64,000 nt of DNA from Stegostoma tigrinum (taxonomy: Eukaryota): NCBI RefSeq assembly GCF_030684315.1, contig NC_081371.1, positions 48,862,390-48,926,389 on the forward strand. Reading direction: 5' to 3'. The position numbers and the translations under genes were made by a program. A model generated the notes under the pieces. The model ran no database searches and was not told the DNA's origin. It saw only the letters and a program-made list of their open reading frames with translations. Below are positions 5,533 through 64,000 of the stretch, in pieces. The first letter of the stretch is position 1, and the number at the start of each line of letters is the position of its first letter.

Positions 5533-8500
5533 AAAGTCAAAAGTGACTTGACACCAGGTTATAGTCCAACAGGTTTATTTGAAATAACAAGCTTTTGGAG
5601 CATAGCCCCTTCATCAGGTGAAGTGAGAGAGAAGCACACAGAACACAGACAGACCAAAAGATCATACAAATGGTGAGTGGACTGTTGAATAATAATAATC
5701 ACTACCTGCAGTATTAGGCGGTGAGAGAGAAGTGTCAACAGCTGAATAACAAACAAACAGATGATCCAGAATCCGATTAATTGAGACAGAGAAATAATTA
5801 CAAAAATATTAAAAATACTGTGGTGCTGGAGCCAAAACAGATGACTGGAATAACATGGTAGGTATAAGAGTTGCATGCCGAGGGTCTGTATAATTAAGGT
5901 AGAGAGATCGTAACAATTTATCTAGGTGATGGTATCAAAACAGGACAGTAAGGAAGATTTTACAGATACGGAACAGTGTGGTGGGGTCACCTGTATGCAC
6001 GACATGAACCCAAGATCACGGCTGAGGTCAGCTTCATAGGTACGAAACTCAGCTATCAGTCTCTGCTTGGCGATTCTGCGTTATTGTATATCTCGAAGGC
6101 TGCCTTGGAGGATGCTTACCCGAATATCGGAGGCTGAATGCCCTTGATCGCTGAAGTATTCCCTGAATGGGAGGGAACACATCTATCGAGTGATTGTTGT
6201 GCAGTGTCTTGCAGAGGTTGCCACGGCAGGATCACGTGGTGTTGCATTGAAGGCTGGGCAGTTTGCTGTGAACGATGGCCTGTTTAAGGCTGGGCAGTTG
6301 TTTGTGGAGGCACAAGGATGGACTTGGTGAGATGCTCGTCATCATTAATGACATGAAGGCTGCAAAGAACATGGCGCAGTCTCTCTGCTCTGGGGAAATA
6401 CTGGACAACAAAGGGTACGCTATCAATTGTATCCTGCGCCTGTCTTCTGAGGAGGTTGTTGCAGTTTTTCACTGTGGCACATCGGAAATGGCAATTGCAT
6501 GCATGCACACCACGAACAAGAAACTGGAGAAACTTGGCATCACCACCAGCAGTAACCAAGCCTCCCCTGGTACCACGGTTGAAACTGGTATCACCAGGGA
6601 AATTTGTCATCAACTTGTCTGACCATACTCTTCAACTGGACGAAATCGAAGTTCTCATCCAAGGGCTCAATTTCTGCCCCACTACCAAAATCGACCCCAT
6701 TGGTCTGGTGGCAGACACAGAAGAATTCATCAGGCCAATGGGGCTCTGGGAATTCTTTCACAAACCCCAAGATGTCAGCAGTGAACCCAATGAGACAACC
6801 AGTGAACCAGAGTAGTCGACAAGAGAGATCCACAGTGTAGTGACAACAGAAGAAAGGTTGATGTGAACCCCTCTAGAAAGCTGCTGTCCTATGCTCAACA
6901 TGTATGCTCAAGCCATCAAGAGATGCATTAACGCTAGATTAATCAGCTATGCTCACAAGATAGCACACAACGCAACCCATCCATGCTCTCAAGACGAATC
7001 AGAACACTGTCATCAAATCAGCAGACAAAGGAGGAGCCACTGTCATACAGAATAGAATGCACTACTGCAAAGAAACATACTGACAACTGAACAACCGGGA
7101 ACACTACAGACCAAATCCGACCAAAGAATATACCTGTCAACTGAACAGACTGGTCAAAACCTTTGATCCAGGTCTTCAAAGTATTCCATACACTCTCATC
7201 CCATGTACTTCCCACGTAGGAGATTTCTACTGCCTTCCAAAGATACATAAAGCCAACATACCTGGGTATCCCATCGTATCAAGCAATGGGACCCTGTGTG
7301 AGAAGCTCTCCGGCTATGTTGAGGGCATATTGAAACCCACTCTACAAAGAATCCCAGCTTCTGTTGTGACACTGCAGACTTCTCACCAGAAATTCAGCAC
7401 CCAGGGCCATTCCTCATCAGAATGGACATTTCTGCACTCTGCACCAGCACTCCCCTTGAGAATGGCAATGCTCCAACAACCTCAGTATTCAATACCATCA
7501 ACTGCCAATTTCCGGACGCCATCCTACAACTCATCATCGTCACCTTTGACAACCAGTTCTTTATCTAGACACACCGAGCAGCCATGGGAACCAAACTTGC
7601 TCCCCAATATGTCAACATTCTCATGCATAAGTTTGAGCAAGATTTGTTCTCTGGGCAGGACTTCCAACCAACACTATACACCAGATACATCGATGACCTC
7701 TTTTTCCTTTGGATTCATGGCGAGGAATCACTGAAATGACTATATAGCAATATCAACAAGTTTCATTCTACCATCACACTTCCCATGGACAACTCTTCCG
7801 AATCAGTATCATTCTTGGACACATGAATCTCCATCAAGGATGGACACTTCAGTAACTCACTCTCCTGCAAGTGCATGGATAACGTCACAATGCCGTTCTT
7901 CTGTAGCTTCTACCCTAAACAAGTTAAAGAAGCCATCACCGATGGAAAAGCTCTGTGCATTCACAGGATCTACTTAGATCAGGAGAAACATGATGGATAC
8001 CTAAAGATTTTGAAGGATGCCCTCATAAGAATGGAATATGATGCTCAACTCATCAATCACAAGATCCGACACGCCATAGCGAAAAACCACAATGACGTTC
8101 TCAGAAGGCAGGCACAGAATACGAACTGTAGAATACCTTTAGTTGTCCAGTATTTCCCTGGAGCAGAAAGTCTATGCTATGTTCTTCACAGACTTCACCA
8201 TATCATCAATGATGATGAGCATCTTGCCAAGGCTATCCCTACACCACCACTTCTTGCCTTTAAACAACCACCAAACTTCAAATAGACTATCATTTGCAGC
8301 AAACTAGCCAGCCTTCAGGACAACATCAGCCACAACACACCACAACCCCACGGCAATAGCTGCAAGACATTCCAGATCATCGACATGGAGACTACCATCA
8401 CACGTGGGAGCATCAGCCACCAAGTGCACAACAGATACTTATGTGACTCAGCCAATGTTGTCTATCTCATACGCTGCAGGCAAGGATGCCCCAAGGCATA

Positions 8501-9190
8501 GTATATTGGCAAGGCCATGCTGGCTCTCTGACAATGGCTGAATGGACACTCTGCAACGATTGCCAGACAGACATGTTCCCTCCCAGTCAGGGAACACTTC
8601 AGCAATCAAGAGCATTCAGCCTCTGATCTTCATGAAAGCATCCTCCAAGGCAGCCTTTGAGACACTCAACAACGGAGAATCACCAAGTGGAAGCTGATAG
8701 CTGAGGTTGAAACCCATGAAAACGGCCTCAACCGTGATCTTGGGTTCATGTCGTGCTACATGTAACCCCACCACACTGTTCTGTGTCTGTGAAATCTTCC
8801 TCACTGTCCTGTTTTGTCACCATCACCTGGATAAATTAAGATCGCTCTACCTTAATTAGTTTGTACAGTTTTGGATTACTTACAACTTTGGTTAGGCACT
8901 TGGCATGCGACTCTTATACCTACCATGTTATTTCAGTTATTTGTGTTGTCTCCAGCACCACCTTACTTTTAGTTTTTTGTAATTATTTCTCTGTCTCATT
9001 TATTTGGATTGTAGGTCATTCCTTTGATTGTTATTCAGCTGTTGCCACGTTTCTCACAACATTTAACACGTTGGATCACCTGCAGGTGGCCATCATTATT
9101 ATTATTCAATGCTCCACTCACTATTTGTATGATCTTTTGGTCTTTCTGCCCTTGATCTCTCTGCCCCTGAATTCTGTGTTCTGTGTGCAA
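5533..9190. mobile_element. Decayed Penelope-like element (second family): minus-strand 3' arm ~5533-6465 joined to plus-strand body ~6466-9190
   Basis: Frameshifted RT fragments (LSDHTL..EIEVL..GLNFCPT; aga tac atc gat gac = RYIDD at ~7683) and GIY-YIG remnants. The peptide LRRQAQ..P.VVQYFP.AE appears on both strands. Degenerate hammerhead core (cac CTGATGA aggggctatgctcc AAAA gc) at ~5590-5620 minus. Confidence 0.88.
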
Positions 9191-11720: not shown

Positions 11721-12597
11721 CGAGCAATTAATCCAGTCGGAACTGATCATTCACAAAAATGTAACTTCCTATGTCTCTTTTACCAGTTGGGAGGTTTTGC
11801 ACTGGCAGAAGCACAACATATTATTTTCTTGTTTAGTTTCTCTGGCGCATTTAAATCTTTTTATCATGATTTCACATTAATATCTCAGTAGAAGCACCCA
11901 AACCTCATTTACACATTGACCGTGGTCCAGATTTAATGGGGTGATAGGGATCTCATTTGCCCGAGCCCGTGCTTTCTCCTTTCAGGAAGTCTCACCAAAT
12001 TAAATCTCAATCAGGTGGCCAGTGGTGGGCCTTCACCAGGATCAAGGACCCTGGGGGTAAAAGCATTAAGAGTTGCTAACCATTTAGAAGCTGACAGCTA
12101 CTCATTGCTTGGCAGTGTCACAAGGGAGGTGGTAACGTTTGCCAGTAGCATAGTCATCCAAGGTCAAAGATACCAGGAATGCAGGTACAGGTGGATCATA
12201 GCAGGAGGGGTATCATTGGATTGGAGAGGGTGCTCCAAGTTTGCTCTCACCCATCCAATTGCTGTGCATTACAAAAGACATCAAATGCCTTTGAACTAGG
12301 GATCCTATCATTCTGCCACTGCATCGCGCATCCTCCCAATAGCAGTAGTGGAATAAGGCACTTAAGCAAGGAATTAATCAATTGGCAGTGAGGGAGTCGG
12401 GTTGCCACATGTGGTTAATTTTCCCTACATTAAACACTGCCCTTTTTTTTGTAAAATGGGAAAGGTTCCCTGGGTCTGCTCTCATGGTGTAAATTTGTTA
12501 ACAGAACTCTCTTACTGAGTGCAACCCAATAAAGCACCCACTTAAACATTTTGCATGTCTTTGGTTTTATCAGTCTTGTAAAGATAATTTGTACGAC

Positions 12598-12690
12598 CTG
12601 CATTATTTGCCTGTTGAGCTTGGCAAGTTCGAATTCTGCATTCTGGTATGCTCCTTCTTTGTTCAGTAGCTCCCCTCGTATCTGACGGTT
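12598..12690 (-). CDS. Candidate extra CEP290 exon '18b' (NRQIRGELLNKEGAYQNAEFELAKLNRQIMQ), paralogous to exon 19
   Basis: 93 nt, phase 0-0, acceptor cctctgtAG, donor CAG|GTCGTA. Ungapped alignment to the exon 19 peptide gives 10/28 identities. Confidence 0.65.
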
Positions 12691-13382
12691 CTACAGAGGT
12701 GCATTGAGTCAGTTAGAATACACAAAGAGATTTAATCAATGTTTCAATGTTAGATTCAGCTTTTTCACTTGGGAGTCTTTATATTCTGCTCAAAAAAACT
12801 TCTCATACTCATACACCAGGGCAGGCCCACTTTCAAGAAGGCCTGGTTTATCAAAGTCATGTGAATCCCATTGTAATCCCATGCTGCACGGAATTTACAG
12901 CAGTGGATTAAGGAATTAATTACATTGCAGGCAAATATGAAGCGTAAGCAATACATACCGCTTGGAAAATAACACAGAATACTATTAAGAAGCAAAGGCA
13001 TGTCATGGTATATACTGGTATTTACATTTTTTTTAAACAGTAGTGTACAGAGAAAACCTTCTAGAGGTCTAGAATTGTAAAGTGGTTTAGTTGCATTGAT
13101 ATTATCGTCAAAGCATGGTTAGTACTTTGTGTAGTTTGGTGTCTATATTATGGAAACAATATACAGACACTGAAAAAAAAATGCAAAAGTTGTTTATAAC
13201 AGTGATACTAGAATTGAGAGATTACACTCAGCATGAAAGATTGAATGGACTAGAACTTCTTTTTCTAGAAAAGAGAAGCCGGTGATACCACCAAATAGAG
13301 GTACTTAAAATTATGATGGACAGATAAATTGAAAATATTTTCCACTTGTGGAGAAGACCAGAACTAGAAGCCATACATACGG

Positions 13383-13640
13383 CTCAATTCCAGCCTTGGG
13401 TGACTGTGCAGAGTTCGCATGTTCTCCCCGTGTCTGCGTGGGTGACCTCCGGGTTTTCCAGTTTCCTCCCACAGTCCAAAGATGTGCAGATTAGGTGGAT
13501 TGGCTAAGCTAAATTGCACATGGTGTTGAGGCTGGGAAGTGCAGAAACTGGGCAGGGGGTGGGTCTGGGTCGGATGCTCTTCAGAGGGTCTGGACTTGAG
13601 GGGCCGAATGGCTTGTGTCCACACAGTAGGGATTCTATGT
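13383..13640 (+). mobile_element. HE1-like SINE (5'-truncated) within a CR1 fragment (~13040-13700)
   Basis: Same central domain and tail as 44509-44833. Confidence 0.82.
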
Positions 13641-13725
13641 TACAAGGCAGCCACTGATAAATCTAATACGGAGTTCTCTACAAGATCGTTCATCCAGAAT
13701 TCAGAATACAGAACTTGCCACCACA

Positions 13726-14070
13726 AGGCACAGTACTGTGGCTCAGTGGTTAGCACGGCTGACTCTCAGAATCAGCAACTCAGGTTCGATTCCACCCTTG
13801 GGCAACTTCCCTGGGGAATCTGCACATTCCTGTCCTGTCTGTGTGGGTTTCCTCCACGTGCTCTACTTTCCTCCCACCGTACAGAAGTGTGCAGGTTAAG
13901 GGGATTGGCCATGTTAAATTGCCAATAAATGGCCAGGGATTTGTAGGTTAAGTGAGTTAGCCATGGAAAATGCTGGGTTACAGGAACATGGGTGGGATGC
14001 TCTTTGGAGGATTGGTGTGTAATTGATGCGCCAAGTGGCCTGCTTCCACACTGTAGGGATTCGATGATCT
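13726..14070 (+). mobile_element. HE1-like SINE
   Basis: tRNA-like head gtggctcagtggttagcac…ggttcgattcc, V-domain and CR1-like tail. Confidence 0.82.
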
Positions 14071-14440
14071 CAACAGTATGGTGAAATAAGGTGCAGTTGA
14101 AGTGAATAGTTTGAGAAGCACACAAGGGAGAAAGTAACTGAAGAACATACTGATAGGGCAAGCTTAGGAGGGTGATAAACCAAAGAACTGAGAAATGCCT
14201 TCTCAATTAATGGCCTTTTGTAACTTCTGCGTCATTTGCCTGCACATACGCTAAATCAGTCAGATGGAAATTGGAGGCAATTCATTATCAGTAACTTAAT
14301 TACTCCAGCTATAACAGCATGCCTAGCACACTGTCTTTCAAAGTCAAGAATAATGTGCAAACACATGTTCTACAGTATTATTATAGGATGCTAAAGCTGA
14401 TTAAGTTCAAATATTTGTTCTATATTAGCAGATTTCTAAC

Positions 14441-14956
14441 CTGTGATTTAAGACTTGATAGTTCTAGCCTTAACTGCTCTAGGAGATCATCTAATGGGTC
14501 AACATTCTTGATAAAGTTCTTGGCTGGTTCTTCAGAATCAGTCACATGCACTGGCTGATCATTTCTAGTCGTGGGGATATCTGCTTGCTCAAGTGACACT
14601 GCTACAGCATTCTCAGTAAGCTCTGATATCTTTGTCAAAGTAGGTGGTAATGGTCCCGGCCTGGCTGGAGTTTCTAGTCGTTCAGACAGTTTGGTTTTTA
14701 ACTCATCAACAGGCTTTTTCTTTTCAAAATGTTCTTTTCTAGCCTGATGGGGAACAATCCGACTTTCTGTCTGGGAAGTCACCAATTCTTCCCAATGCAA
14801 AGAGCTCCTCTGAGAACTTCCTGACTGCCCTACAGACCTGTGAAGAATCTCTGAAATCTGGCTGGACATTTTCCTTAGCGCAAGATCTTTATAGTAATCA
14901 ATGTCAGCAGAGCCTTGCCTTCCTTTGACGTAATAAAAATCATTTCTACTGTTATC
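14441..14956 (-). CDS. Candidate extra CEP290 exon '18a' (172 aa, DNSRNDFYY...LEQLRLELSSLKSQ)
   Basis: 516 nt without stops, phase 0-0, acceptor tgctctgtttttatacAG and donor CAG|GTTAGA. No repeat hallmarks. S/E/K/P-rich with a coiled-coil-like C-terminal end. No counterpart in the human CEP290 sequence as I recall it. Confidence 0.7.
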
Positions 14957-15998
14957 CTGTATAAAAACAGAGCACATGCAATTCTAAATTATATGACATG
15001 TTCCTCTCAACACTCTGGTCATTTCTTAGCAACATCTTTAAGCTTGAAACTAATATAACTTTTGATACAGTCAGAAAAGTAGATACAAAGGTATTTTAAA
15101 TGAACCAAAATCATGACTTGCTTCTTATCTTTTGCTTGGAACTACAACTATGAATAAAAATACAGGAAAACACCTTACTCAATGTTAAAAAAAGTCTGTA
15201 TCCAGACTGTAATTTATTATGGATCAACATCCTTGATAAATCCACTGGATCCAGTCACAATAGCTAATTAAAAACCAGCTTTTTAAGAGACATTATTTAA
15301 AGCTTACACACAATGAGCAAGGTCACTGACTCTGTCTCCTTCAGAAATTATCTTCCTGCGGCTTCTTGCGATTGGGAATTTAAACAAATACTGACACCAT
15401 AGGATTGCACGCACACCTGCATACAGCAACTAGATGTAGTATCTCCCCTTCAGAATAGTATTAGAACCTGGAGATTTTCTACACCACAACTCTCAGTCCA
15501 CATTGACCAGCTTTCTCTGTATTATTCTTTTTTATAAAGATAACTTCCTCAAATGATTTTATAACAGCAAGCATGTTTGTTGGGTGTTGGCAAGTCATTT
15601 TATCTTCTCATCAATTTTCTCTCCATTTAGACACTTCCACACCAGAGTTTTTCCAGAACTTTGTGTTTTTATCGGTTTCTTTTTCCTCCCTGTAGATCAT
15701 GGTTTCAGCAGTATGGGGAATCTATACAGGCAAAATTATGTGGCAAAGGACAGATTCTGTGATCTTTTCAAATTTATTGCCATTTATGTTTGCCAGATAG
15801 TAAATTCTATTCACTCCTGCTAAGACAGAATCAGTATAGTGGACTTGGCATTTCAGGCTACAGTGTAAATTTCAGTCATACAGAATCTATATGTTAACAC
15901 AATCATGTCAAAACTTGTAACATAATCTAAACTTATTTTTCCATGATTTTGATTTTGATAAATTTGACAAAATTTCAGTTCAAAGCATACATGATTAC

Positions 15999-16105
15999 CT
16001 TATGGTTTAATTCAAAGTTGAATGAGCTTGACAGTTCTGTCTCTTTGCTAGTACTTATCCTCTCATTAAACGAATCCACCAATCCCAGATCCTCAGCTGA
16101 AATTC
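15999..16105 (-). CDS. CEP290: CEP290 exon 18 (ISAEDLGLVDSFNERISTSKETELSSSFNFELNHK)
   Basis: 107 nt, phase 1-0, TAG/GTAATC. Starts like human GLTTEDL and diverges after that. Confidence 0.85.
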
Positions 16106-17192
16106 CTAGGTACAGCATAATACAGCACAGATTGACATCTTGCAGATTTAATCGTCAATCAAATTGAATGCTACAAAAAGAATTCCATATTCTAAACTCA
16201 CGTTCACGAACCCTATTTTGCACATGATGTAGTATTTCAATTATACTTAAGAATATTCATTCATAAGGGCAAACAGAGCTGATTTATTACGTGCACTGTG
16301 ACCTGAGTTCAAATCTGGATGCAGCCTATTTTTTCCTGGTCAGGTTAGTGCTGAGCTTTGGAAAGTCTCATTAGCTCTGGTTACCATGATTTATAATCTA
16401 CATGTTTGTGGCTCATTATGTGTGAACTGATGAAAAAAAATGGGGCAAATGGCCTTCACTCATTCTAAACTTTTATGAGTGCTTTATCTAACTGCAGAGG
16501 CTTTCAATATTCATTTGAATAGCTGGGAAAAGTAAGTGGGTCTTGTTTGACATCTCAGTTGTCAAGGACGCAACTGCTAACAATGCAGCATTCAAGGCTG
16601 GGTATTCCCATGTTGTGGAGACTCAGTCTTTGGGACAAAATGGAGTTCTTAGATTGCAATTCCCAGATTTAATGGTAGCAATTAGGAAACAGCTAGGAAG
16701 CACATTGTTAGCCCTTAGAGCACATTGTTTTGTCTTTCGCGCCCAGACCTTCTAAGCTGTGCTACCTGAAAGCTCAAAGCATGGAGATGGTGGCATTGGC
16801 ATGTAAAGGGCCACTGCATCATTGGTAAAACGCCAATGCTCCTGCAAAGGTCAAATGTAATTGGATTCATAATCAGCTCAATTGGCTGTCACTTATTTCA
16901 AATAGGCCTTCAAAGATCTTGATCACCTTGGGGAATCTTGCAGTATTTAGAGGAGCAATTTACCAAGAAGGGAGAGTTTCATGAGCTTCTTTTCTTTATA
17001 CTGGCACTTAAAATGAACACCAGCTTGCCCCAATGTAATTAAATAAAGCAATGCACACGCATGCACTGGTGACAGGAAGCACACTGATTTTGTTTAGTTC
17101 CACATTTTCAAATTATATGAGCCAATTCCCTATTTGATGGAGATGCTTGTCCTGTATACACTGGTGAATCACAAACTAGGCGATAAGCTTAC

Positions 17193-17280
17193 CTCCCACA
17201 CCTGCTCGCATGCCTTTATCTTGAGCCATCCTACGAATTTGCCTCTTTAACACCAATCTTTCTTCCTCCAAGCGTTCAAT
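17193..17280 (-). CDS. CEP290: CEP290 exon 17 (IERLEEERLVLKRQIRRMAQDKGMRAGVG)
   Basis: 88 nt, phase 0-1, CAG/GTAAGC boundaries. Confidence 0.96.
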
Positions 17281-17371
17281 CTGAATTAATAAATATTGCA
17301 CTTTTAAGTGGAATGGTCTTGTATATTAATGTGACAAATCAATAGCAAAGCAAACAAAATGATTCACCAAC

Positions 17372-17472
17372 CTCTTTTAGCAGGACCTGGTTCTCAGCTT
17401 GAAACTGCTGCTGTTTCAAGTACTTGGTTTTCCTAAACTCACTTAGATCGATTATTTCATTTGTGTCGAGGC
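17372..17472 (-). CDS. CEP290: CEP290 exon 16 (LDTNEIIDLSEFRKTKYLKQQQFQAENQVLLKE)
   Basis: 101 nt, phase 1-0, TAG/GT. Confidence 0.96.
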
Positions 17473-17896
17473 CTAAACACAAATTATTTTTCATTAAAGC
17501 AAGAAAAAAACTGATTCTTTATAACTCCAACAGCGGAGTTCAGGAAATTAGGAGCAAAATATCACCAACCTCATTATATCAGTTATTGTGCTAAGTACAG
17601 TTGCCTGTAACAATTTTTTTAAAATTCAAGGACACATAATGGTTATTTGCAATCCATTTTCAGGGTCATGTACGGGAAAAGTGACATCATCTGATACCGA
17701 GCAGGTTTCCCAACCTTTCACAAGTAGGATCATCCAGTTAAATGGAAAGGAACCTCAGGAAAAACAGCTGAAAGATGTTTAAATCTACTAGATTTCTTGT
17801 AACATTGTTCATGGTCTATCACGTGATACAGAGACAATGGTGAAATGGGACTGTAAGCAGCAACCATAGCATTCCTCAGCATGTGTACTTGCAGAA

Positions 17897-23511: not shown

Positions 23512-25515
23512 GAAGTAGGAGAGTTGATGGTTCAGGCCTGGACACTTCATCAGGACTGGGGGATGGCGGAGAGAGCTAGGAAATAAATGGAGGAAAGAGG
23601 AGTAGGGCTGGGGGAAGGTAAGTGGGATGGTGATAGACGGATGCAGGTATGGGTAGTGGGGATTGGTCCGTGGGAAGGGTGGGGCAGATAGGTGGGGAAC
23701 AAGTTGTGTCAGTCAAGATGGAGATGAGAGGGAGGGTTGAACATGGGATGAGGCCGGAGGTGGGGAGATTTTGAAACTGGCGAATTCCACCTTTACGCCA
23801 TCAGGCTGTAGGGTCCCAAGGAAGAATATGAGGCGTTGTTCTTCCAGTTTGCGTGTGGCAGCATTGTGACACTGGAGGTGGCCCCGTATGGATGCATCAC
23901 CCAGGCAGTGGGAGGGGTAGTTAAAATGGTTAGCAACCAGGAGGTGTTGTCGATTCTTGTGTACGGAGTTCAAATCTGTCACCAAGTCAATGGTTGGTCT
24001 CACTGATGGAGGGGAGGCCCCAACGAGAGCAACGGGTACAGTAAACCAGGTTAGATGATGTACAGATGAACTCCTGTTACATATGGAAAGTCTGTCTTGG
24101 GGGCCTCAGTTGGAGGTGAGAGGGGAGGTGTAGGGGCAGGTGTAGCACCTCACGCGATTACAGGGAAAGGTGTCAGAAGTGGTGGGGTTGGTGGTGAGTG
24201 TGGAGTGGATGAGGGATTCGCAGAGAGAGCGGTCCCTACGAAAGCCAGATAGGAGTGGGGAGGGAAATATCTCTTGTGGGGTCAGATTGTAGGTGGCGGA
24301 GGATACGCTGGATGCAGAGGTTGGTGAAGTGCTATGTGAGGACCAGGGGGACTCGGCCTTTATTTTTGTTGGGGTGGGAAGGAGTTGAGGGGCAGAAGTG
24401 TGGGAAATGCAAGAGATGTGGTTGAGGGCATTTGCAATCACCGGAGGAGAGAAGTTACGGTACTTGAAGTAGGAAGACATCTGGGTTGTGCGGGAGTGGA
24501 ACGCTCCATCTTGGGAACGGACGCGGCGGAAATGGAGAACTTGGGAGTAAGGGATCATATTCTTGCAAGAAGATGGGTGAGAGGAGATGTAGTCAAGACA
24601 GCTCTGGGAGCCAGTGTATTTGAAATAGATGCCAGTGCAGAGACGGTTACCGGATATGGAGCTTACAGGAGGGTAGGTGAGAGGAGGTGAGGTGCAGGAG
24701 GGTGGGTGGGAGGAGGTGAGTTGCAGGAGGGTGGGTGGGAGGAGGTGAGTTGCAGGAGGGTGGGTGGGAGGAGGTGAGTTGCAGGAGGGTGGGTGGGAGG
24801 AGGTGAGTTGCAGGAGGGTGGGTGGGAGGAGGTGAGTTGCAGGAGGGTGGGTGGGAGGAGGTGAGTTGCAGGAGGGTGGGTGGGAGGAGGTGAGTTGCAG
24901 GAGGGTGGGTGGGAGGAGGTGAGTTGCAGGAGGGTGGGTGGGAGGAGGTTTCTTGCAGACTCGGTGACAAATTTGTGGAGCACTGTGCTCCATACACTAT
25001 AATCAATAACATCTTCCAGTCCTCAACCATTTTAACTCCCGCTCCCACTCCCTAGGTGACATGTCCATCCTGGGCCTCCTCCAGCACCACAGTGACACCA
25101 CATGCAAACTGAGGAACAAACTTCATATTCCACCTCAGGAGCCTACAGCCCAGTGGCCTAAATATAGAATTCACCAGTTTCAAAATCTCCCCATCCCCGG
25201 CCTCATCCATGTCCAACCCTCCCTCTCATCCCCGCCTCCTTGACCTGACACTATCCTGTCTATCTCCTTCCCCATCTATCCACCACACCCTTCCCACTGA
25301 CCAATTCCCACTACCCATTACCTGCATCCACCTATCCTCCCCCTCCCCTTTTCCATTATTTATTTCCCGGCTCCCTTCCCCTCCCCAGTCCTGAAGAAAG
25401 ATCTAGGCTCAAAACATCAACTCTCCTGCTCCTCTGCTGCTGCCTGGCCTGCTGTGTTCCTTCAGCTCCACACTGTATCATCTCTGACTCGAGCATGTGC
25501 AGTTCTTGCTATCTC
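23512..25515. mobile_element. Decayed Penelope-like element (related to 41049-43047) with inverted arms: minus ~23512-24660, plus ~24957-25515; nested in a CR1 LINE
   Basis: ORFs 24106-24993 and 23713-24003 are homologous to the C-terminal half of the 528-aa PLE ORF. The plus arm encodes RLGDKFVEH onward and ends in a hammerhead-like tail. CR1 sequence flanks both sides. Confidence 0.88.
24663..24949 (+). repeat. 29-bp G-rich tandem repeat, ~10 copies (TTGCAGGAGGGTGGGTGGGAGGAGGTGAG)
   Basis: Directly visible; explains the 29-aa periodic ORFs in all three minus frames. Confidence 0.97.
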
Positions 25516-26117: not shown

Positions 26118-27566
26118 CTGGAAAGAAACATTTTTATCACATTCACTTTTTAGTAGTGAAGCCTTGGATTATATGGCAATAACTGCACATGGGGAATAAA
26201 CATAAATACAAACAAAAACAATGACTTTAAGAAGACCATAACTTGTGTAGCAGAACTTAATAACATATTGCGACAGTAGCACATTTAGTCAAGTTCAAAA
26301 AGGCCGATGCCCAAGACAAGTTCAAACCAACAATTACATCAGAGGGCAAAGAATCTTGTGAGAAAAGACATGTTAAGAATTAAGCCGAATTAAACCTTTA
26401 AAGTCTACAGTTGTCCACTGTTGGCAGGAATTGCTTATAACTAAGCAACAAGTCGTGATCCTCATATTTAGAAAAATTTTATTTCTTTCAGGGAATTGAA
26501 GAATTAAACCACTGGAGAGGCCGAAGGTGATAAATTCACCACAAAATTCTTAGCCTCTGACCCACTCTTGTGGCTATAGTATTTGTATGGCTCAAATGGT
26601 CCATTTCAGTTTCTAGTCAGTGGTAATACACCCCCGGCCACTCCCCCACCCACCCCTGTCAGTTATTCATGTTGACTGGATTCCAAGAACATTGGGAGAT
26701 ATGCCTTGTAGTTGTTTGTATATCAAGCCTAAGATTGAGTGATTTGTTTGATAAACAGAGCTTTGCCGCTGGTTGTGAGTTCAAAAGCTTCGCTCTGATT
26801 TTGCGCATGCAGTACTTCAACTAGGAGTGGTGTTGATCACAATTGCGGCCTTTTGCAAAATTATTCCAAAGGTGCCATAAATATCAAAGATGGTAGTATA
26901 CAAAATACAGACATTTGCTCCATTATTGAAAAGCTGTGAAGTAAAATTCAAACACTATAACTGAAAATCAAGAACTATCATAAAGTGATTCTTTCTCGCA
27001 GCATTCACCCCAAGTATAAACCTGAACACTTTTGTTAGAAAAGCATCCTGACTGAATGTTTATTTTAGAGTTAAAACAAATTGCAGGGCAGATTAGGTAA
27101 AGTGAAAACAACATAACTGAAAGGAAAGCAATTTCCAAATATGTTGCAATTTTCTTCAATTGTTATCCAAAATGTTATAACTAAATGACCAATTTTAACG
27201 TTATTCATCCTTTGTAATGTGATTTTGCGCATTAGAGAATTGTTAACAGCTAAACAGAATGTTTTTGGAAAGTAAATAGAACAGAAAAGAGAATAGTTAC
27301 AGAAGGTGAGTGAAGGAAAATTGTGATGCATTTAATTGTAAAGTAATAGAAATGTACTTACTACTTAGAGTTCTTCTACGATCTAAAGATAACCACAATT
27401 GAAGGACGGCAATTGAAAAGGTTGAAGGCAAGCATATTTTTAGATCTTAAGAATAGTTTGCAGTGAATAAGGTGAAAAGTAAGTCTATTAGTAATGTAAG
27501 CATGGCTTACCTAAGAAATTACGAAAATGGAAGAGGTTAAAATTAACATTTGACCAATTGGCACAC

Positions 27567-41048: not shown

Positions 41049-43047
41049 ATAATAAAATGTGAGGCTGGATGAACACAGCAGGCCAAGCAGCATCTCAGGA
41101 GCACAAAAGCTGACGTTTCGGGCCTAGACCCTTCATCAGAGAGGGGGATGGGGGGAGGGAACTGGAATAAATAGGGAGAGAGGGGGAGGCGGACCGAAGA
41201 TGGAGAGTAAAGAAGATAGGTGGAGAGGGTGTAGGTGGGGAGGTAGGGAGGGGATAGGTCAGTCCAGGGAAGACGGACAGGTCAAGGAGGTGGGATGAGG
41301 TTAGTAGGTAGCTGGGGGTGCGGCTTGGGGTGGGAGGAAGGGATGGGTGAGAGGAAGAACCGGTTAGGGAGGCAGAGACAGGTTGGACTGGTTTTGGGAT
41401 GCAGTGGGTGGGGGGGAAGAGCTGGGCTGGTTGTGTGGTGCAGTGGGGGGAGGGGATGAACTGGGCTGGTTTAGGGATGCAGTGGGGGAAGGGGAGATTT
41501 TGAAACTGGTGAAGTCCACATTGATACCATTAGGCTGCAGGGTTCCCAGGCGGAATATGAGTTGCTGTTCCTGCAACCTTCGGGTGGCATCATTGTGGCA
41601 GTGCAGGAGGCCCATGATGGACATGTCATCAAGAGAATGGGAGGGGGAGTGGAAATGGTTTGCGACTGGGAGGTGCAGTTGTTTGTTGCGAACTGAGCGG
41701 AGGTGTTCTGCAAAGCGGTCCCCAAGCCTCCGCTTGGTTTCCCCAATGTAGAGAAAGCCGCACCGGGTACAGTGGATGCAGTATACCACATTGGCAGATG
41801 TGCAGGTGAACCTCTGCTTAATGTGGAATGTCGTCTTGGGGCCTGGGATGGGGGTGAGGGAGGAGGTGTGGGGACAAGTGTAGCATTTCCTGCGGTTGCA
41901 GGGGAAGGTGCCGGGTGTGGTGGGGTTGGAGGGCAGTGTGGAGCGAACAAGGGAGTCACGGAGAGAGTGGTCTCTCCGGAAAGCAGACAGGGGTGGGGAT
42001 GGAAAAATGTCTTGGGTGGTGGGGTCGGATTGTAAATGGCGGAAGTGTCGGAGGATAATGCGTTGTATCCGGAGGTTGGTAGGGTGGTGTGTGAGAACGA
42101 GGGGGATCCTCTTGGGGCGGTTGTGGCGGGGGCGGGGTGTGAGGGATGTGTCGCGGGAAATGCGGGAGACGCGGTCAAGGGCGTTCTCAATCACCGTGGG
42201 GGGGAAGTTGCGGTCCTTAAAGAACTTGGACATCTGGGATGTGCGGGAGTGGAATGTCTTATCGTGGGAGCAGATGCGGCGGAGGCGGAGGAATTGGGAA
42301 TAGGGGATGGAATTTTTGCAGGAGGGTGGGTGGGAGGAGGTGTATTCTAGGTAGCTGTGGGAGTCGGTGGGCTTGAAATGGACATCAGTTACAAGCTGGT
42401 TGCCTGAGATGGAGACTGAGAGGTCCAGGAAGGTGAGGGATGTGCTGGAGATGGCCCAGGTGAACTGAAGGTTGGGGTGGAAGGTGTTGGTGAAGTGGAT
42501 GAACTGTTCGAGCTCCTCTGGGGAGCAAGAGGCGCCGCCGATACAGTCATCAATGTACCGGAGGAAGAGGTGGGGTTTGGGGCCTGTGTAGGTGCGGAAG
42601 ATGGACTGTTCCACGTAACCTACAAAGAGGCAGGCATAGCTGGGGCCCATGCGGGTGCCCATGGCCACCCCCTTAGTCTGTAGGAAGTGGGAGGAGTCAA
42701 AAGAGAAGTTGTTGAGTGTGAGGACGAGTTCCGCTAGGCGGATGAGAGTGTCGGTGGAGGGGGCCTGGTCGGGCCTGCGGGACAGGAAGAAGCGGAGGGC
42801 CTTGAGGCCATCTCCATGCGGAATGCAGGTGTACAGGGACTGGACGTCCATGGTGAATATGAGGTGTTGGGGGCCAGGGAATTGGAAGTCCTGGAGGAGG
42901 TGGAGGGCGTGGGTGGTGTCACGGACATAGGTGGGGAGTTCCTGGACCAAAGGGGAGAAAATGGAGTCCAGATAGGTGGAGATGAGTTCGGTGGGGCAGG
43001 AGCAGGCTGAGACGATGGGTCGACCAGGGCAGGCAGGTTTGTGGATG
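41049..43047 (-). mobile_element. Young 5'-truncated Penelope-like element (Neptune-type), RT plus GIY-YIG endonuclease
   Basis: Frame is open from the 5' junction (IHKPACPGRPIVS) to the stop at 41364. Motifs: MDVQSLYT, GVAMGTRMGPSYA, RYIDD, Cys linker CNRRKCYTC, VVYCIHC..CGFLYIGET. Perfect 14-bp TSD CAGTCATAACTTAG at 41035-41048 and 43048-43061. Confidence 0.96.
41108..41142 (-). ncRNA. Minimal type I hammerhead ribozyme motif at the PLE 3' end
   Basis: Minus strand reads ct-CTGATGA-a-gggt-ctag-gccc-GAAA-C-GTC-ag. This gives a complete catalytic core, stem II, palindromic ACGT in place of stem III and a GUC cleavage triplet; stem I is very short. Confidence 0.75.
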
Positions 43048-44126
43048 CAGTCATAACTTAGCTGTTTTAAAAACAGTTCATATTATAGAAGAGGAAGTTT
43101 GGGAGGTCTTAGAGAATATAAAGGTGGATAAAATCGCTGGAACCTGATCTAATGTATCCCAGAATGGTGTAGGAAGTAAGGGAGGAAATTACAAGACCAA
43201 TTGCAGAAATATTTGCATCATCTCAAGCTACAGGTGAGGTGCCTGATGACTGTAATGTTGTACCTTTAAGAAAGGTTGTAAGGAGAAACCGGGTAACTGT
43301 AGATCTGTGAGTCTGACTTCGGTTGTGGGTAAATTGTTGGAGGTGATTAAGGAAGTTAGGATTAATGGGCATTTAGAGGCGCAAAAATTGATTAGGGATA
43401 GTCAGCATGGTTTTGACTGAAGAAAATCACATCTCAGAAACTTGACTCAGCTTTTTGAGGAAGTTACCAAAAAGGTTGATGAAAGCAGAGGAGTAGATGT
43501 TATTTATTAGGATTTCAGTAAAGCCTTTGACAAGGTTCAATATGGTAGACTAATTAGTAAAGTTAAGTGACTTGGGATTCAAGGTGAAATTGCTAATTGG
43601 ATACATAATTGGCTTAAGTCAGTGTAATGGGAGGGGGGTTGCTCTTCAGACTGGAGGCCTGTCACCAGCAGTGTTCCACAGGGATCTGTTCTGGGTCATC
43701 TTTTGATTGTCATTTACATAAATGATTTGGGTGAGAATATAGAAACCATGGTTAGGAAGTTTGCAGACGATACCAAAATTGGTGGCAGAATAGACAGCGA
43801 AGCAGATTTTCTATGATTACAAAGGGATCTTGATCAAATAGGTCAACGGGCTGAAAAATGGCAGATGGAGCTCATTCTGGATAAATGCAAGGTACTGCAT
43901 TTTGATACAACAAACAAAGGTAGGGTTTATACAATTAATGGTAGGGCCTTGGGTAGTGTAGAATCGAGGGACCTAGGGGTGCAGGTACATAGTTCATTGA
44001 AATTGCATCATATATAGACAGGATGGTTAAAAAGGCATTCAGCATGGTTGCCTTCATTGTTCAGTCCTCTAAGTATATAAGTTAAAAGTCATGTTGAGGT
44101 TGTAAAGGACATTGGTGAGGCCTCTT

Positions 44127-59112: not shown

Positions 59113-61900
59113 TAACAGAAACAGCACTAAGCTGTTGCAGTAGTATCATAACTGGACTAATGGTCAAGAGAACGAACAAGTGCCAGAGAAGCTCAGCAGG
59201 ACTGGCAGCATCTGTGTAGAGAGAAGTGGAGTTAACGTTTCGAGTGTAGTGACTCTGCATCGGATGCTGCCCAACCAGCTTAGTTTCTTCAGTGCTCTCC
59301 AGCTCGCTGTTTTTTGGTTGTAATCTTCTGGAGATCTGGGCTAATGATTCAGAGATTATAGTTCAAATCCTACCATGAAAGTTCATGAATTCAAATTTAG
59401 TCAATAAAACATTGGAGCCAGCAATGGTGACAGTCTGTAATACAACCAAAACAGTTTACATTTTTATAAAATTTAGTGTAGTGCAACATTTCAAGTTGCT
59501 TCACATTAAAGCAAAATTTGACCCTGGACCTATGGTGGTGTTAGGGCAGGTAACCAAAGTTTTTGACAAAGGGCATTTTGAATCATAGCAAAGGTAAGGG
59601 AGTGAATTTTGGGGTCAGCAGCCCAGTGGCAGAAGGCATGGCCATGTTGGTCAAACAATGATTCTGATTCTGTGTCACAGATCCAGAGTCACTAACTTTG
59701 TTTCTCTGCAGGATGCTGCCAGAGTTGCTGAGTTTTTACAACTTTTGTTTTTGTTATTTCAGACTAATAGTACACTTGTGTTTTGATTTCATAGAGCAAT
59801 GGATATTGCGGATGTGCATGAATTTAAAGGCTAATAGGGCTGAAGCCATGGATGGATTTAAAAACAAACCAGTGTAAATCTTGAGCAGAAGGGTGATGGG
59901 TGAATGGAACTAGGTGCATGTTAGGGTTAGGGTTAAGGAAGCAGAGTTTATGGAGGGGTAGAGCATGAGTTGTCCCAGTGTGTGATGGAATAGTCATCCG
60001 TGGGCAATGGTGAGAGTTAGGGTCCCACAAGTGTCAGTGTGATAACAACCAGATCATCTGTTTAAAGGATAGAATTATTGCAGGTACAGTATATCCTCTT
60101 GATTATGTTTAGCCTGATCATTTGCACTGTTAAATTCTATTGTCTGCTCAGAATGAGGATTGTTCTAGGCCATTGATAGTCTGACCAGATTAATTAATTA
60201 TTGATCTTGTGTGAGAGCTGTTGGGGTTTTGGTGCTGGTGGGAGAGGAACAAACATCATGGGATGTAGGCACCACTGTGAAGATGAGCATTTGTTGCCCA
60301 TTCCCAACTGCCTTTGATTGGCTTGCGTGATGATTTCAGAGGCCACTTAAGAGTCAACCAGAGTTCTGTGGGGCTGGAGTAACATATAGGCCAGCACAGG
60401 TGGGGATGGCAAATTTCCTTCCCTAAATTTGCTTTACAAAATTTGATGATAATCCCAGTCACCACCATCAAGGCAAGCTTTTTGTTTCAGACTTATTAAT
60501 TAGAGTTAAATACCACACCATAGTGGATTTTGAACACGTGTTCCCACAGCAATAACCTGGGCCTCTGGATTAATCCTACTGATGCTCCCACGATGCCTTT
60601 GCCTCCTGTAGTGCACTCGGGAAACCTAACCTGTGCAGATGCACCATTTAGAGGTAGTGGGAACTGCCAATGCTGGAGAACCTGAGATAACAAGGTATAA
60701 AGCTGGATGAGGCCAAGCAAAATCAGAGGATCAGGAAAGCTGACATAAAGAGTACTGCAACACCTGAAGCAATCTGTGATGGTATGTTTTGTGTGGAGTA
60801 GTGTGTTCTAAATAATATTATGAAATATGCACATTTTTAACCAAAGAAGTACAATATTTCCAGAAAATCTTCATAGATTTGGATCTCTTATATAAATATT
60901 TTTAGGAGGTTCAAGCACATATTAATGAGATTGTGCTTGCTCGTGAGTAATGTAAGTTTGTTGCGTGTACAAGTTACATTGGACAGTCGCCAAGGGAACC
61001 AAATAAAAGAAGACAAGTCTGTTGTGCTGACCTGCATTAAAAGGGAACCTCCATTTTAGAACAGCAGGAGTCCCTTCCCTCCCATTTTTTTTATCAGCTT
61101 GCAGTGATTTTTGGTAGACAGTTTCCGCTTAGATCTAAGTCTGATCAAACAAAGATGTGGGATGATTAGTTCAGTGTAGAATAAGAAGCAATAGATACCT
61201 TTTACTATTAATTTCTCAGATGAGGGCATTGCTGGTACATGAGGCCGGCATTGCTGCCATCCCTAGTTTCCCTTGAAGTTGAAAGTGCTGATCTTCCTGC
61301 TTTAACTGTCTGGACACCATATAGAGTATATAGGCCCATAATATTGTTAGGGAATGAGTTCCCAGATTTTGATTCAACCGCATATCAGGAATTATGGTAT
61401 TGTTCCAGATCGGCATGGTGTGAAACCTGAAGGGAAACTACAAGATGTTCCCAGCACCTTCTGTCTTGTTCTTTCAGGTGGTAGAGATCATAGAAAATGC
61501 TGTTAAAGTTTGAGTTGGTTGTAGATAGTATACAGTGCTTTGGTGGTAGATGCAATGCTAATCAAGCAGTCTACTTTGTACAGAATGGCATTGTGCTTCA
61601 TGAGCGTTGTTGCAACTGGTAGCTGTCAGCAAGTAGAAGATATCCCATCGCTCTCCTAATTTGTGCCTTGTAAGTAGCAGATAGCTTTTCATAGCCAGGA
61701 GGTGAGTAACTTTTCAGTGTTCCCAACAGGTGACATGTCTGTAGTCAGTGTTTATTACATGAGACTTGTTTCTGGTTTGAATAGAAACGTAACAAAATTA
61801 GCAAAGCTTTATGTTGTGGGTTTGCTTAGTTTGTTTCATAAAGGAGATGAAAGCAAAATGTCGTTAAAATAGTTTTAATTTTCTACAGCAGCCTGTGAGG

Positions 61901-62089
61901 ATGGCTGAGCTGAGCTGGAAGGAGGTAGTTTTGTTGACAGCGGTAGTGGCCGCTTGTTACTGGAACAGCACGAATTGTGGGTTTGTTTTTGATGATGTCT
62001 CTGCCATTCTGGATAACAAAGATTTGCATCCTTCAACACCTTTAAAGAACTTATTCCACAATGACTTCTGGGGAACTCCAATGAATGAG
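61901..62089 (+). CDS. TMTC3: TMTC3 first coding exon (protein O-mannosyltransferase; [12 protein letters not shown]...[37 protein letters not shown])
   Basis: 189 nt from ATG to donor GAG|GTAATG; tandem acceptor CAGCAG at 61886-61891. FVFDD and NDFWG are TMTC motifs, and the head-to-head position next to CEP290 identifies TMTC3. Confidence 0.96.
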
Positions 62090-64000
62090 GTAATGCCATT
62101 TCTGCTGTATTCTCATAAAATCTCACATTTCAATGTCATATTTGCACTTAAAAATGATTTTAAAGTTGAATTAAAACTTTAACAATATAGATGTTAAACA
62201 ATGATATGTAGATATATAGTCAATATTTGATAACCATATCTGGTCTTACTCTCATGGAATTGCGGTTTGAGGAAAAGGTCAGACTTGAATGAAAGAATAG
62301 GTTTAAGTATCCAATTCCAGCTCACATTTTTATTTTCTTTCAGAATCATCTGGAATTCCTATTGATTGTTGCATGTACAAAACAATCAGCAGGTTTTCTT
62401 CCGATGCTTTCTTGGCCATTCTCCTATCTTCTGCACCTCGTAAACCTGAACTGATGCAAAACTCTGCTCATTCACATGACCTTCCATTTTTCTGCCACTA
62501 CTTCTGTCAGAACTGCCTTGCTTCCTCTCTTGGCAACACTGAATTTAAAATTCATATCCTTTGGCCAAGTCCTTCCGTGGCCTTCACCCTTTCTATTCCT
62601 GTAATCTCCTCCAACCCTCCGTGATCTGTGCTCTTCCAAATCCTGCCTGCTACACATTCCTGATTTTTCATTCAGCCACTGGCCATGTGAGCCTTCTCCA
62701 CCAATTGATAAAACCATGGCAGATCCAACTAGTGCACGTTCCTTACTACCCCGATAACTGTTCATCTCTTTTCTTCTCAAGAACCCATCATCCTACGCCC
62801 ATAAAAATTCCAACTTTGCTTTCACTGCCTTTCAAAGAAGAGAGTTTCAATGACTCGTAACCCTTTGAGAAAAACAGATCTCATCTCTGCTTTAAATGTG
62901 CCAGGAATTCTCTCCCCCAGCCAACAATAGAGGACTGGATCTTTGATTGTATTTGAGGCTGAGGTAGTTGAATCTTTGACAAGTGAGTTGAGAGTAATAG
63001 GTGTGGGCAGAAAAGCACATTTCAGGGCACGATCAAATCAACCCTGAACTTATCGAATGGTGACCTAACTCTCTTGTTTTCAAGAACAAGAAAGAAACCT
63101 AGCCTGTCAAATCTTTCCTGATGTTTGTTTCCACTCATTTCTGCTGTTGCCCTCATAAACTTTCTTTCTGTATTCAAAAGTATCTAATCCTTTTCATAAT
63201 AATAAATCTAACCCAAGGTTCACTGTAGTTTTCTAAATACCTCCCAACTTTTCATTCTAACCCACAGGATATGAAGCCTTGTTTTTGTTTTCTTTTTAAT
63301 GCTCACCTCTGTTCCAACTTTTAGTGATTGATGCACTTTCACTCTAAGATCCCTTGGTTCCTCTACCCAGCATCTTCCAAATAATGTGGCCTCCCTCGTC
63401 TTCCGACCAATATGTACCATTTCTGAAACAAGATTCCAAAATGTAACTAACTGCTTTCTGTCTGAAGGAACTTTTTTGTTTCCATTTTCCTCACTCTTCT
63501 CCTGTTGTGCCTCCTCCAATATAAATAATGTTACTGTTTACTAATCTAGTATTTTTAAAATAATCTTTACTCTTAATCTAATACAGTTTACTACATACAC
63601 TTCAAAATCATGAAGGTTTTCATCAGGCCATTCCTTGCCACCCATAACTTCTCAAGCTTTGCTTCATAGCTTTAAGTCCCATCTTTAATGAAATCCTTGT
63701 TCACTAATTTTGTCTCTTAGTCACTATTTTCAGATCCTGCCTAAACTGTAAGGGTAAGGATATTGCCATAAGTTCTTTTAGCACGAAAAAGGCCCTTCGG
63801 CCTGTCAAGTTCATGCTGGTCGTCAAACATGTATCTACCCAACTCCACTTTCCAGCACTTGTTCTGTAGCTTTGTATACCACGGCACTTCAAGTGGTCCT
63901 TTAAATACTACTTAAATATTGTCATAGTTCTTGCCTCTACCACTTTTTCAGCCAGTAAGTTCCAGAAACCTACCATCCCAGTGGAAAAAAACTTATTTAA

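Follow-up and report, generated by a model that had tools for sequence, protein, structure and literature searches.

CEP290 is among the commonest Leber congenital amaurosis genes (PMC7917623, PMC3048164). The greater sensitivity of photoreceptors compared with other ciliated cells is an open question to which the exon described below may be relevant. Optional 21-nt exons of this gene are retina-specific in mouse and zebrafish (PMC9303857, PMC4991804), and a pattern of Musashi UAG sites at retina exons has been reported (PMC4991804). Dataset S1 of PMC9303857 has eight CEP290 rows, namely a mouse microexon, two zebrafish microexons, an 885-nt exon, a 556-nt exon and three repeats. The 885-nt zebrafish exon (DreEX0020906) shows an inclusion of 88.8 in retina versus 3.4 elsewhere, and the 556-nt chicken exon (GgaEX2005993) 52.0 versus 1.4 (PMC9303857). 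The 116 long exons listed there for human and the 121 for mouse include none of CEP290, and cep290 goes unmentioned in the main text. Nothing bearing on the exon described here appeared in passages of PMC11450717, PMC7917623, PMC11225895, PMC13704990, PMC11785020 and 10.1101/2025.02.10.637427. No description of an exon in CEP290 intron 18 was found among the papers listed by searches of open-licence literature. A longer human CEP290 isoform, with about 287 extra residues, may also exist; searches by identifier yielded no CEP290 paper for it.

The window, i.e. the whole 64-kb stretch of Stegostoma tigrinum DNA analysed, carries the 5′ part of CEP290 on its minus strand, where a bamboo-shark CEP290 model was mapped as 20 segments; a 54-aa exon shares 98% identity with whale shark CEP290 and 96% with that of bamboo shark, as befits a carpet shark. 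Exons are numbered by the human convention and its exon lengths; there exon 18 ends at c.1824 (PMC3048164), and the photoreceptor microexon of the window is flanked by 54-nt and 153-nt exons, as is its mouse counterpart (PMC4991804, supplement). Exon 18 (16105-15999, minus strand), placed by the mapped model and by a contig of run X1 (see below), ends in phase 0, and exon 19 (5354-5270, minus strand), placed by the mapped model, begins in phase 0. In the pig, bird and pipefish models fetched, exon 18 is joined straight to exon 19. The pipefish "CEP290-like" models P0011, P0012 and P0025-P0027 are only about 1280-1370 aa long, with much of the protein middle apparently missing. At 61868-62182 on the plus strand lies the start of a gene arranged head to head with CEP290, the peptide of which is presumably TMTC3-like.

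Intron 18 contains a 516-nt candidate cassette exon of phase 0-0, hereafter X (14956-14441, minus strand), which translates to 172 mostly disordered amino acids without a stop codon, the five other frames having 8-20 stops each. The first-pass annotation had described it as a stop-free segment of the CEP290 strand with an AG acceptor, a CAG-GTTAGA donor and the phase of the exon 18/19 junction, and all of this was borne out: a pyrimidine tract ending in CAG precedes X (14957-14981), the final CAG is followed by the donor GTTAGA (14435-14440), and both neighbouring exon ends are in phase 0. X therefore has the makings of a frame-preserving cassette, i.e. AG/GT ends, a length that is a multiple of three, matching neighbour phases and an open frame. 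With 16 exons of the window itself as the source of the scoring matrix, its acceptor ranked 28th among 740 AG and its donor 9th among 654 GT dinucleotides of intron 18.

None of 5000 dinucleotide shuffles of the X segment remained open in frame. A frame of at least 172 codons appeared once when the local 1.5 kb was shuffled 3000 times, in 21 of 1000 shuffles of intron 18 and in 30 of 200 shuffles of 58 kb of the minus strand, so the length of X alone is not decisive at the scale of the window and outside evidence is needed. The statement that X is the longest non-transposon ORF in the window fits what was found, as outside the X locus there are five ORFs of at least 172 aa. One of the five has RVT_1 and GIY-YIG matches below the Pfam cut-offs, three have no Pfam match, and the fifth, overlapping the first, lay outside the scan; the latter four were judged by eye to be retroelement fragments. 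The 572-aa ORF at 41364-43082 (minus strand), with weak RVT_1 and GIY-YIG matches, is presumably a Penelope-like retroelement; kindred fragments are located at 7084-8285 and 24106-24996, and the region 5646-9148 comprises an inverted pair of degenerate copies.

There is no second copy of X within the 64-kb window. No Pfam family matches X or Y (a neighbouring exon, see below), no PDB entry matches X, and the ESM Atlas returned no usable match for X. In the three DNA-like runs X2-X4, which may come from the window's own sample and so lend no independent support, the depth over X equals that of its flanks, SINE bins being thousands of times higher, and the contigs over X have 0-3 differences and no gaps. 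Window copies, run depth and Pfam thus gave neither a multi-copy signal nor a similarity to a transposon protein, and the match to a transposon family that the earlier reading had named as grounds for dropping the exon did not turn up.

The product of X is rich in S+T (17%, compared to 9% in a shark CEP290 model) and in P (6% compared to 1%). The structure predicted from an alignment of only four sequences has pLDDT below 50 in 105 of 172 residues, with low-confidence helices spanning 15-44 and 154-171 on either side of a disordered part, in keeping with the S/T/E/K/P-rich, probably disordered stretch with a heptad-like end noted at first. Its last 20 codons (14441-14500, minus strand) form a conserved leucine-heptad motif. 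Heptads of the last 21 residues run on in register into exon 19 and Y, and across the boundary of X with exon 19 two heptad positions are hydrophobic in 6/7 and 5/7 cases, alike in shark and bird.

A single homolog of X, P0002, was found among 1.84 billion representatives (E 1.8e-13), with two near-identical members. P0002 shares 41% identity with X over 150 columns and 18 of its last 20 residues, and P0002-P0004 are open over the same span as X. As far as the boundaries can be known from the protein alone, the X-like span of P0002 is preceded by a pyrimidine-rich codon run ending in Gln, a phase-0 context similar to that of the X acceptor, and its motif is followed by Val-Arg, which is how the donor reads in both shark and bird. 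A search of proteins of 94-375 aa with an X profile retrieved only P0002 among 3805. No match to X was found among 1304 candidates of 302-2000 aa, a range that omits full-length CEP290 (more than 2000 aa), so this null result says nothing about full-length models. The metagenome scan with the X profile gave 597 pattern matches, none of which was confirmed.

A metagenome scan with CEP290 proteins gave 591 matches that led to two loci, L001 and L002. L002 is bird-like, being 67-94% identical to a flycatcher CEP290 model over 15 of 16 segments, and between its exons 18 and 19 there is the end motif of X (11 of 20 residues identical) followed at the same place by the donor GTGAGA. The motif scores 51 there against 24 for the next best place, a score reached by none of 20,000 shuffled queries. 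Since motif and donor occupy the same place in bird intron 18, X predates the shark-bird split. It is thus likely, as judged from sequence, that X is ancestral; of the two origins left open by the first-pass annotation, lineage-specific or ancestral, the latter is favored by the bird motif, donor and acceptor context and by P0002, and the former is not. The bird counterpart (L002 11426-12229) is 804 nt long, a multiple of three, and begins after an AG in a similar phase-0 context. A distantly related species thus has a counterpart of X in the corresponding intron, as expected of a conserved alternative exon, although in broken form. In the frame of its acceptor there are 13 stops; the first 50 codons and the last 41 share one open frame, with internal stops and at least two frame changes needed between them. 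The interval also includes a 165-codon frame, matched in 1 of 3000 shuffles, the longest frame in 15 other introns being 68 codons. The middle of the interval has no similarity to X (probability 0.2). Because all 13 canonical bird exons checked in L002 are open at shark lengths, the break of X looks biological and the exon dispensable in that bird, with the thin support of one metagenome contig. In the invertebrate-like L001 the intron at the position of X is about 80 nt long and leaves no room for it; this single locus does not fix the date at which X originated. The end of X (14441-14467) is somewhat closer to the exon 18 ends of L001 (3575-3581) and L002 (11231-11236) than is the shark's own exon 18, a very short likeness hinting that X may have arisen from exon 18.

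Intron 18 contains a second optional exon, which we call Y (12690-12598, minus strand), a 93-nt coiled-coil exon of phase 0-0. Its 31 amino acids are all identical in the whale shark and bamboo shark models, in bamboo shark exceeding any neighbouring exon. Y is included in five of the six shark models fetched and skipped in one, and the fetched models of pig, bird and pipefish lack it. Its splice sites are weak (acceptor 127th of 740, donor 191st of 654 in intron 18). L002 has an open 93-nt counterpart at 13920-14012 in the same order as in the shark; its score alone is not significant (reached by 1346 of 20,000 shuffles), and the assignment rests on length, phase and position, the interval being one of two open 93-nt AG-GT intervals in the intron. 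With 10 of 28 residues identical to exon 19 (shuffle p 7e-5), Y may be an old duplicate of that exon, as its sequence suggests, although another CEP290 coiled-coil stretch scores equally well.

No RNA run was present among the sequencing runs listed as containing X, and four of the five listed runs were compared with 12450-17550 only (likeness 84), exon 19 lying outside. Run X1 is from another shark, about 94% identical, its tissue unrecorded and its RNA status only guessed. In its record 1, exon 18 (record positions 527-632) stands directly against Y (633-725), i.e. spliced with X skipped, and X is likewise skipped in all six shark models. It was found in none of the 17 fetched CEP290 proteins that span the exon 18/19 junction, the six shark models included; the remaining 6 of 23 were left out because, by the pattern used, they do not span the junction. 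Two low-depth contigs of run X1 cover 441 of the 516 nt of X without gaps, compared to six gaps in two intronic contigs. Record 3 covers 14697-14441, stops at the predicted donor of X and has 47 further letters, and bin arithmetic with rounded figures implies another contig that reaches about 29 nt into X from the intron. Such a pattern would be expected where spliced and unspliced forms part at the donor. Record 4 (depth 3.9) runs unspliced through the acceptor. Taken together, the end of record 3 at the donor, the implied second contig and the unspliced acceptor indicate that the donor is probably used in this shark and stop short of demonstrating inclusion of X.

The inclusion junctions 15999-14956, 14441-12690 and 14441-5354 were not among the run matches listed for 12450-17550, the tables being crowded by SINE copies. 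By bin arithmetic a contig that links 15999 with 14956 would not fit, and run X1 lacks cover at 16212-17066 and 12792-13304; since contigs attest only to what is present, neither carries weight. Over Y some 127 depth-letters are left over, which would fit 33 letters of the tail of the donor contig, and other sums fit too. The substitution rate over X in run X1 is 6.1% (83 intronic nt included), in the range of the intronic contigs (5.6% and 7.6%), which speaks against strong constraint; the rates elsewhere are 1.1% in Y, 1.9% in exon 16 and 7.5% in exon 18. Upstream of X, the intronic segments 15187-15356 and 15621-15888 are 92-94% identical in the other shark and have contigs in run X1, which may be precursor RNA, DNA or conserved regulatory sequence.

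As to the tissue, the zebrafish retina-microexon primers (PMC9303857) translate to exons 12 and 13, matching a 21-nt exon in shark and bird. Should zebrafish cep290 be a minus-strand gene and its other microexon be exon 8, the 885-nt exon would lie where X is expected, on the downstream side of the two 21-nt exons and with a relative spacing of 1.63, to be compared with 1.49 for X in bird and 2.38 in shark, a spacing that also fits introns from about 15 to 19. The zebrafish length of 885 nt is a multiple of three and the chicken length of 556 nt is not, a frame break that would agree with the broken bird X if the two are the same exon. Rows placing the zebrafish and chicken exons were found in none of the supplements of PMC10111803, PMC11450717 and PMC13281805. 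The shark microexon 8, a 21-nt photoreceptor microexon (32604-32584, minus strand), is open, is also present at L002 5772 and is optional in bamboo-shark models. The 21-nt microexon between exons 12 and 13 (27362-27382, minus strand) has a GTAAGT donor and an in-frame TAA at codon 6; the microexon of the same intron, which the zebrafish retina primers flank, is open in a bamboo-shark model and at L002 8042, so the Stegostoma tigrinum copy would be a poison exon, a dead exon or an assembly error.

The 200 nt behind the X donor (14241-14440, minus strand) are rich in UAG and may hold Musashi sites, a weak indication drawn from the TAG count. There are seven TAG in this stretch, the highest number of 13 exons counted, and four in the first 100 nt, as many as in 3.6% of background windows; the bird counterpart has five in 200 nt, fewer than two of 12 bird exons. 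The shark excess fits the Musashi pattern weakly. By analogy with the retina-enriched zebrafish and chicken exons, X may be retina-specific, the retina being its likeliest tissue.

With moderate confidence we read X as a frame-preserving optional exon that predates the split of sharks and birds and is probably included mainly in photoreceptors. It would be included as 18-X-Y-19 or 18-X-19, inserting about 150 fast-evolving disordered residues at an existing non-helical break of exon 18. The last 20 residues of X would extend the coiled coil of Y or exon 19 by about three heptads, so that it restarts earlier, and the connecting cilium would receive a CEP290 in which a longer spacer separates the N-terminal coiled coil from the remainder of the protein. 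Musashi-type UAG sites may help inclusion, a step with less support. The original proposal of a cassette exon placing a long linker into the CEP290 coiled coil is upheld as to the exon-like unit, its 0-0 phase, its skipping and a mostly disordered product with a helical end, its inclusion being a prediction. A broader proposal, which we regard as possible but rather doubtful, is that jawed vertebrates inherited a photoreceptor CEP290 longer by about 200-300 residues via two intron-18 exons, coding in sharks and zebrafish, with a bird exon that is stop-bearing yet retina-spliced and a remnant that may persist in human intron 18, making some "deep intronic" CEP290 variants exonic.

It is unlikely, though still worth serious thought, that X is a real in-frame cassette included in another tissue, such as testis or motile-ciliated epithelium, or at a low level everywhere, and not chiefly in retina. 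All the sequence evidence for the exon status of X is blind to tissue, run X1 has contigs on X with its tissue unrecorded, and the zebrafish and chicken exons of PMC9303857 are not placed by sequence in the material available. However, a long CEP290 exon enriched in retina is on record for two other vertebrates (PMC9303857) and X is the long candidate here, the UAG excess lies behind the X donor, and the 21-nt optional exons of the gene are retina-specific in mouse and zebrafish. Rather improbable is the use of X as an alternative first exon, with a promoter in intron 18, a start at Met30 and splicing to Y or exon 19 to give an N-terminally truncated CEP290. The in-frame ATG of Met30 (14867-14869, minus strand), relevant only to such an internal start, does not vary among P0001-P0004, nor do the residues that follow it; run X1, moreover, has an apparently used donor, a read-through acceptor and contigs in the upstream intron. 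Yet those contigs may be unspliced precursor or DNA, shark, P0002 and bird all retain the acceptor context in phase 0, the frame between acceptor and Met being open (29 and 14 codons), and the first 50 codons of the bird counterpart include no Met.

There is only a small probability that X is a decaying relic in this shark as well, open and occasionally spliced with its function lost. Such a relic would account for the near-intronic substitution rate over X in run X1, the broken bird exon and the absence of X from six shark models, but not easily for a frame and two ends kept in P0002 at 41% protein identity, with 18 of 20 residues of the end motif, or for 441 nt of X without gaps in run X1. 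A terminal or retained segment, with the donor read through to give a truncated CEP290 or a degraded transcript, is a slimmer prospect still. The frame does continue six codons past the donor to a stop at 14420-14422, and a contig of run X1 appears to run from X into the downstream intron; nevertheless, no AATAAA or ATTAAA occurs within 600 nt past the donor, the read-through tails of shark, P0002 and bird differ in length and sequence beyond the donor letters, and the heptads are continuous with Y and exon 19. As for a chance ORF or a transposon fragment, a frame of this length in 15% of the 58-kb strand shuffles speaks for it, but with the positional homolog in bird, the full-length homolog P0002 and no repeat signal its probability is close to nil; the motif match in bird intron 18 refutes it, unless L002 is misassembled.

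If the reading of X as a photoreceptor exon is true, a retina-enriched insertion kept since before the shark-bird split would set the connecting cilium apart from the ordinary transition zone by a tangible feature that can be deleted. Photoreceptor CEP290 proteins may then differ between fish and mammal models, the shark CEP290 gene models fetched would lack an exon, and a precise stretch of intron could be screened in patients whose cases are unsolved.

Compared with the known systems, X is closest to the RetLONGs of cep290 (zebrafish DreEX0020906 and chicken GgaEX2005993; PMC9303857), being like them a long and optional exon of the same gene. Theirs, as recorded there, are skipped outside the retina. 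They measure 885 and 556 nt against the 516 nt of X and are known there by coordinates without sequence, so that identity with X is a candidate one; counterparts of X in zebrafish and chicken may already be catalogued. Microexon 8 of CEP290, controlled by Musashi and Srrm3 (PMC4991804, PMC9303857), is also optional and frame-preserving in the same gene. With 21 nt it differs from X, which has 516 nt and adds a disordered region; no functional study of X was found. The low-complexity ORF15 of RPGR is terminal, whereas X, the donor of which is conserved, would be an internal exon. The likeness to the retina isoform with ORF15 lies in a large intron-derived coding stretch of low structure in a connecting-cilium protein (PMC11785020). 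Like the cryptic exon of CEP290 intron 26 (c.2991+1655A>G), reported as more included in retina (PMC7917623), X is hidden in an intron of CEP290. That exon is mutation-made and stop-bearing, whereas X is natural, in frame and conserved. The class of mechanism to which X would belong, tissue-specific disordered exons in ciliary genes, is already known.
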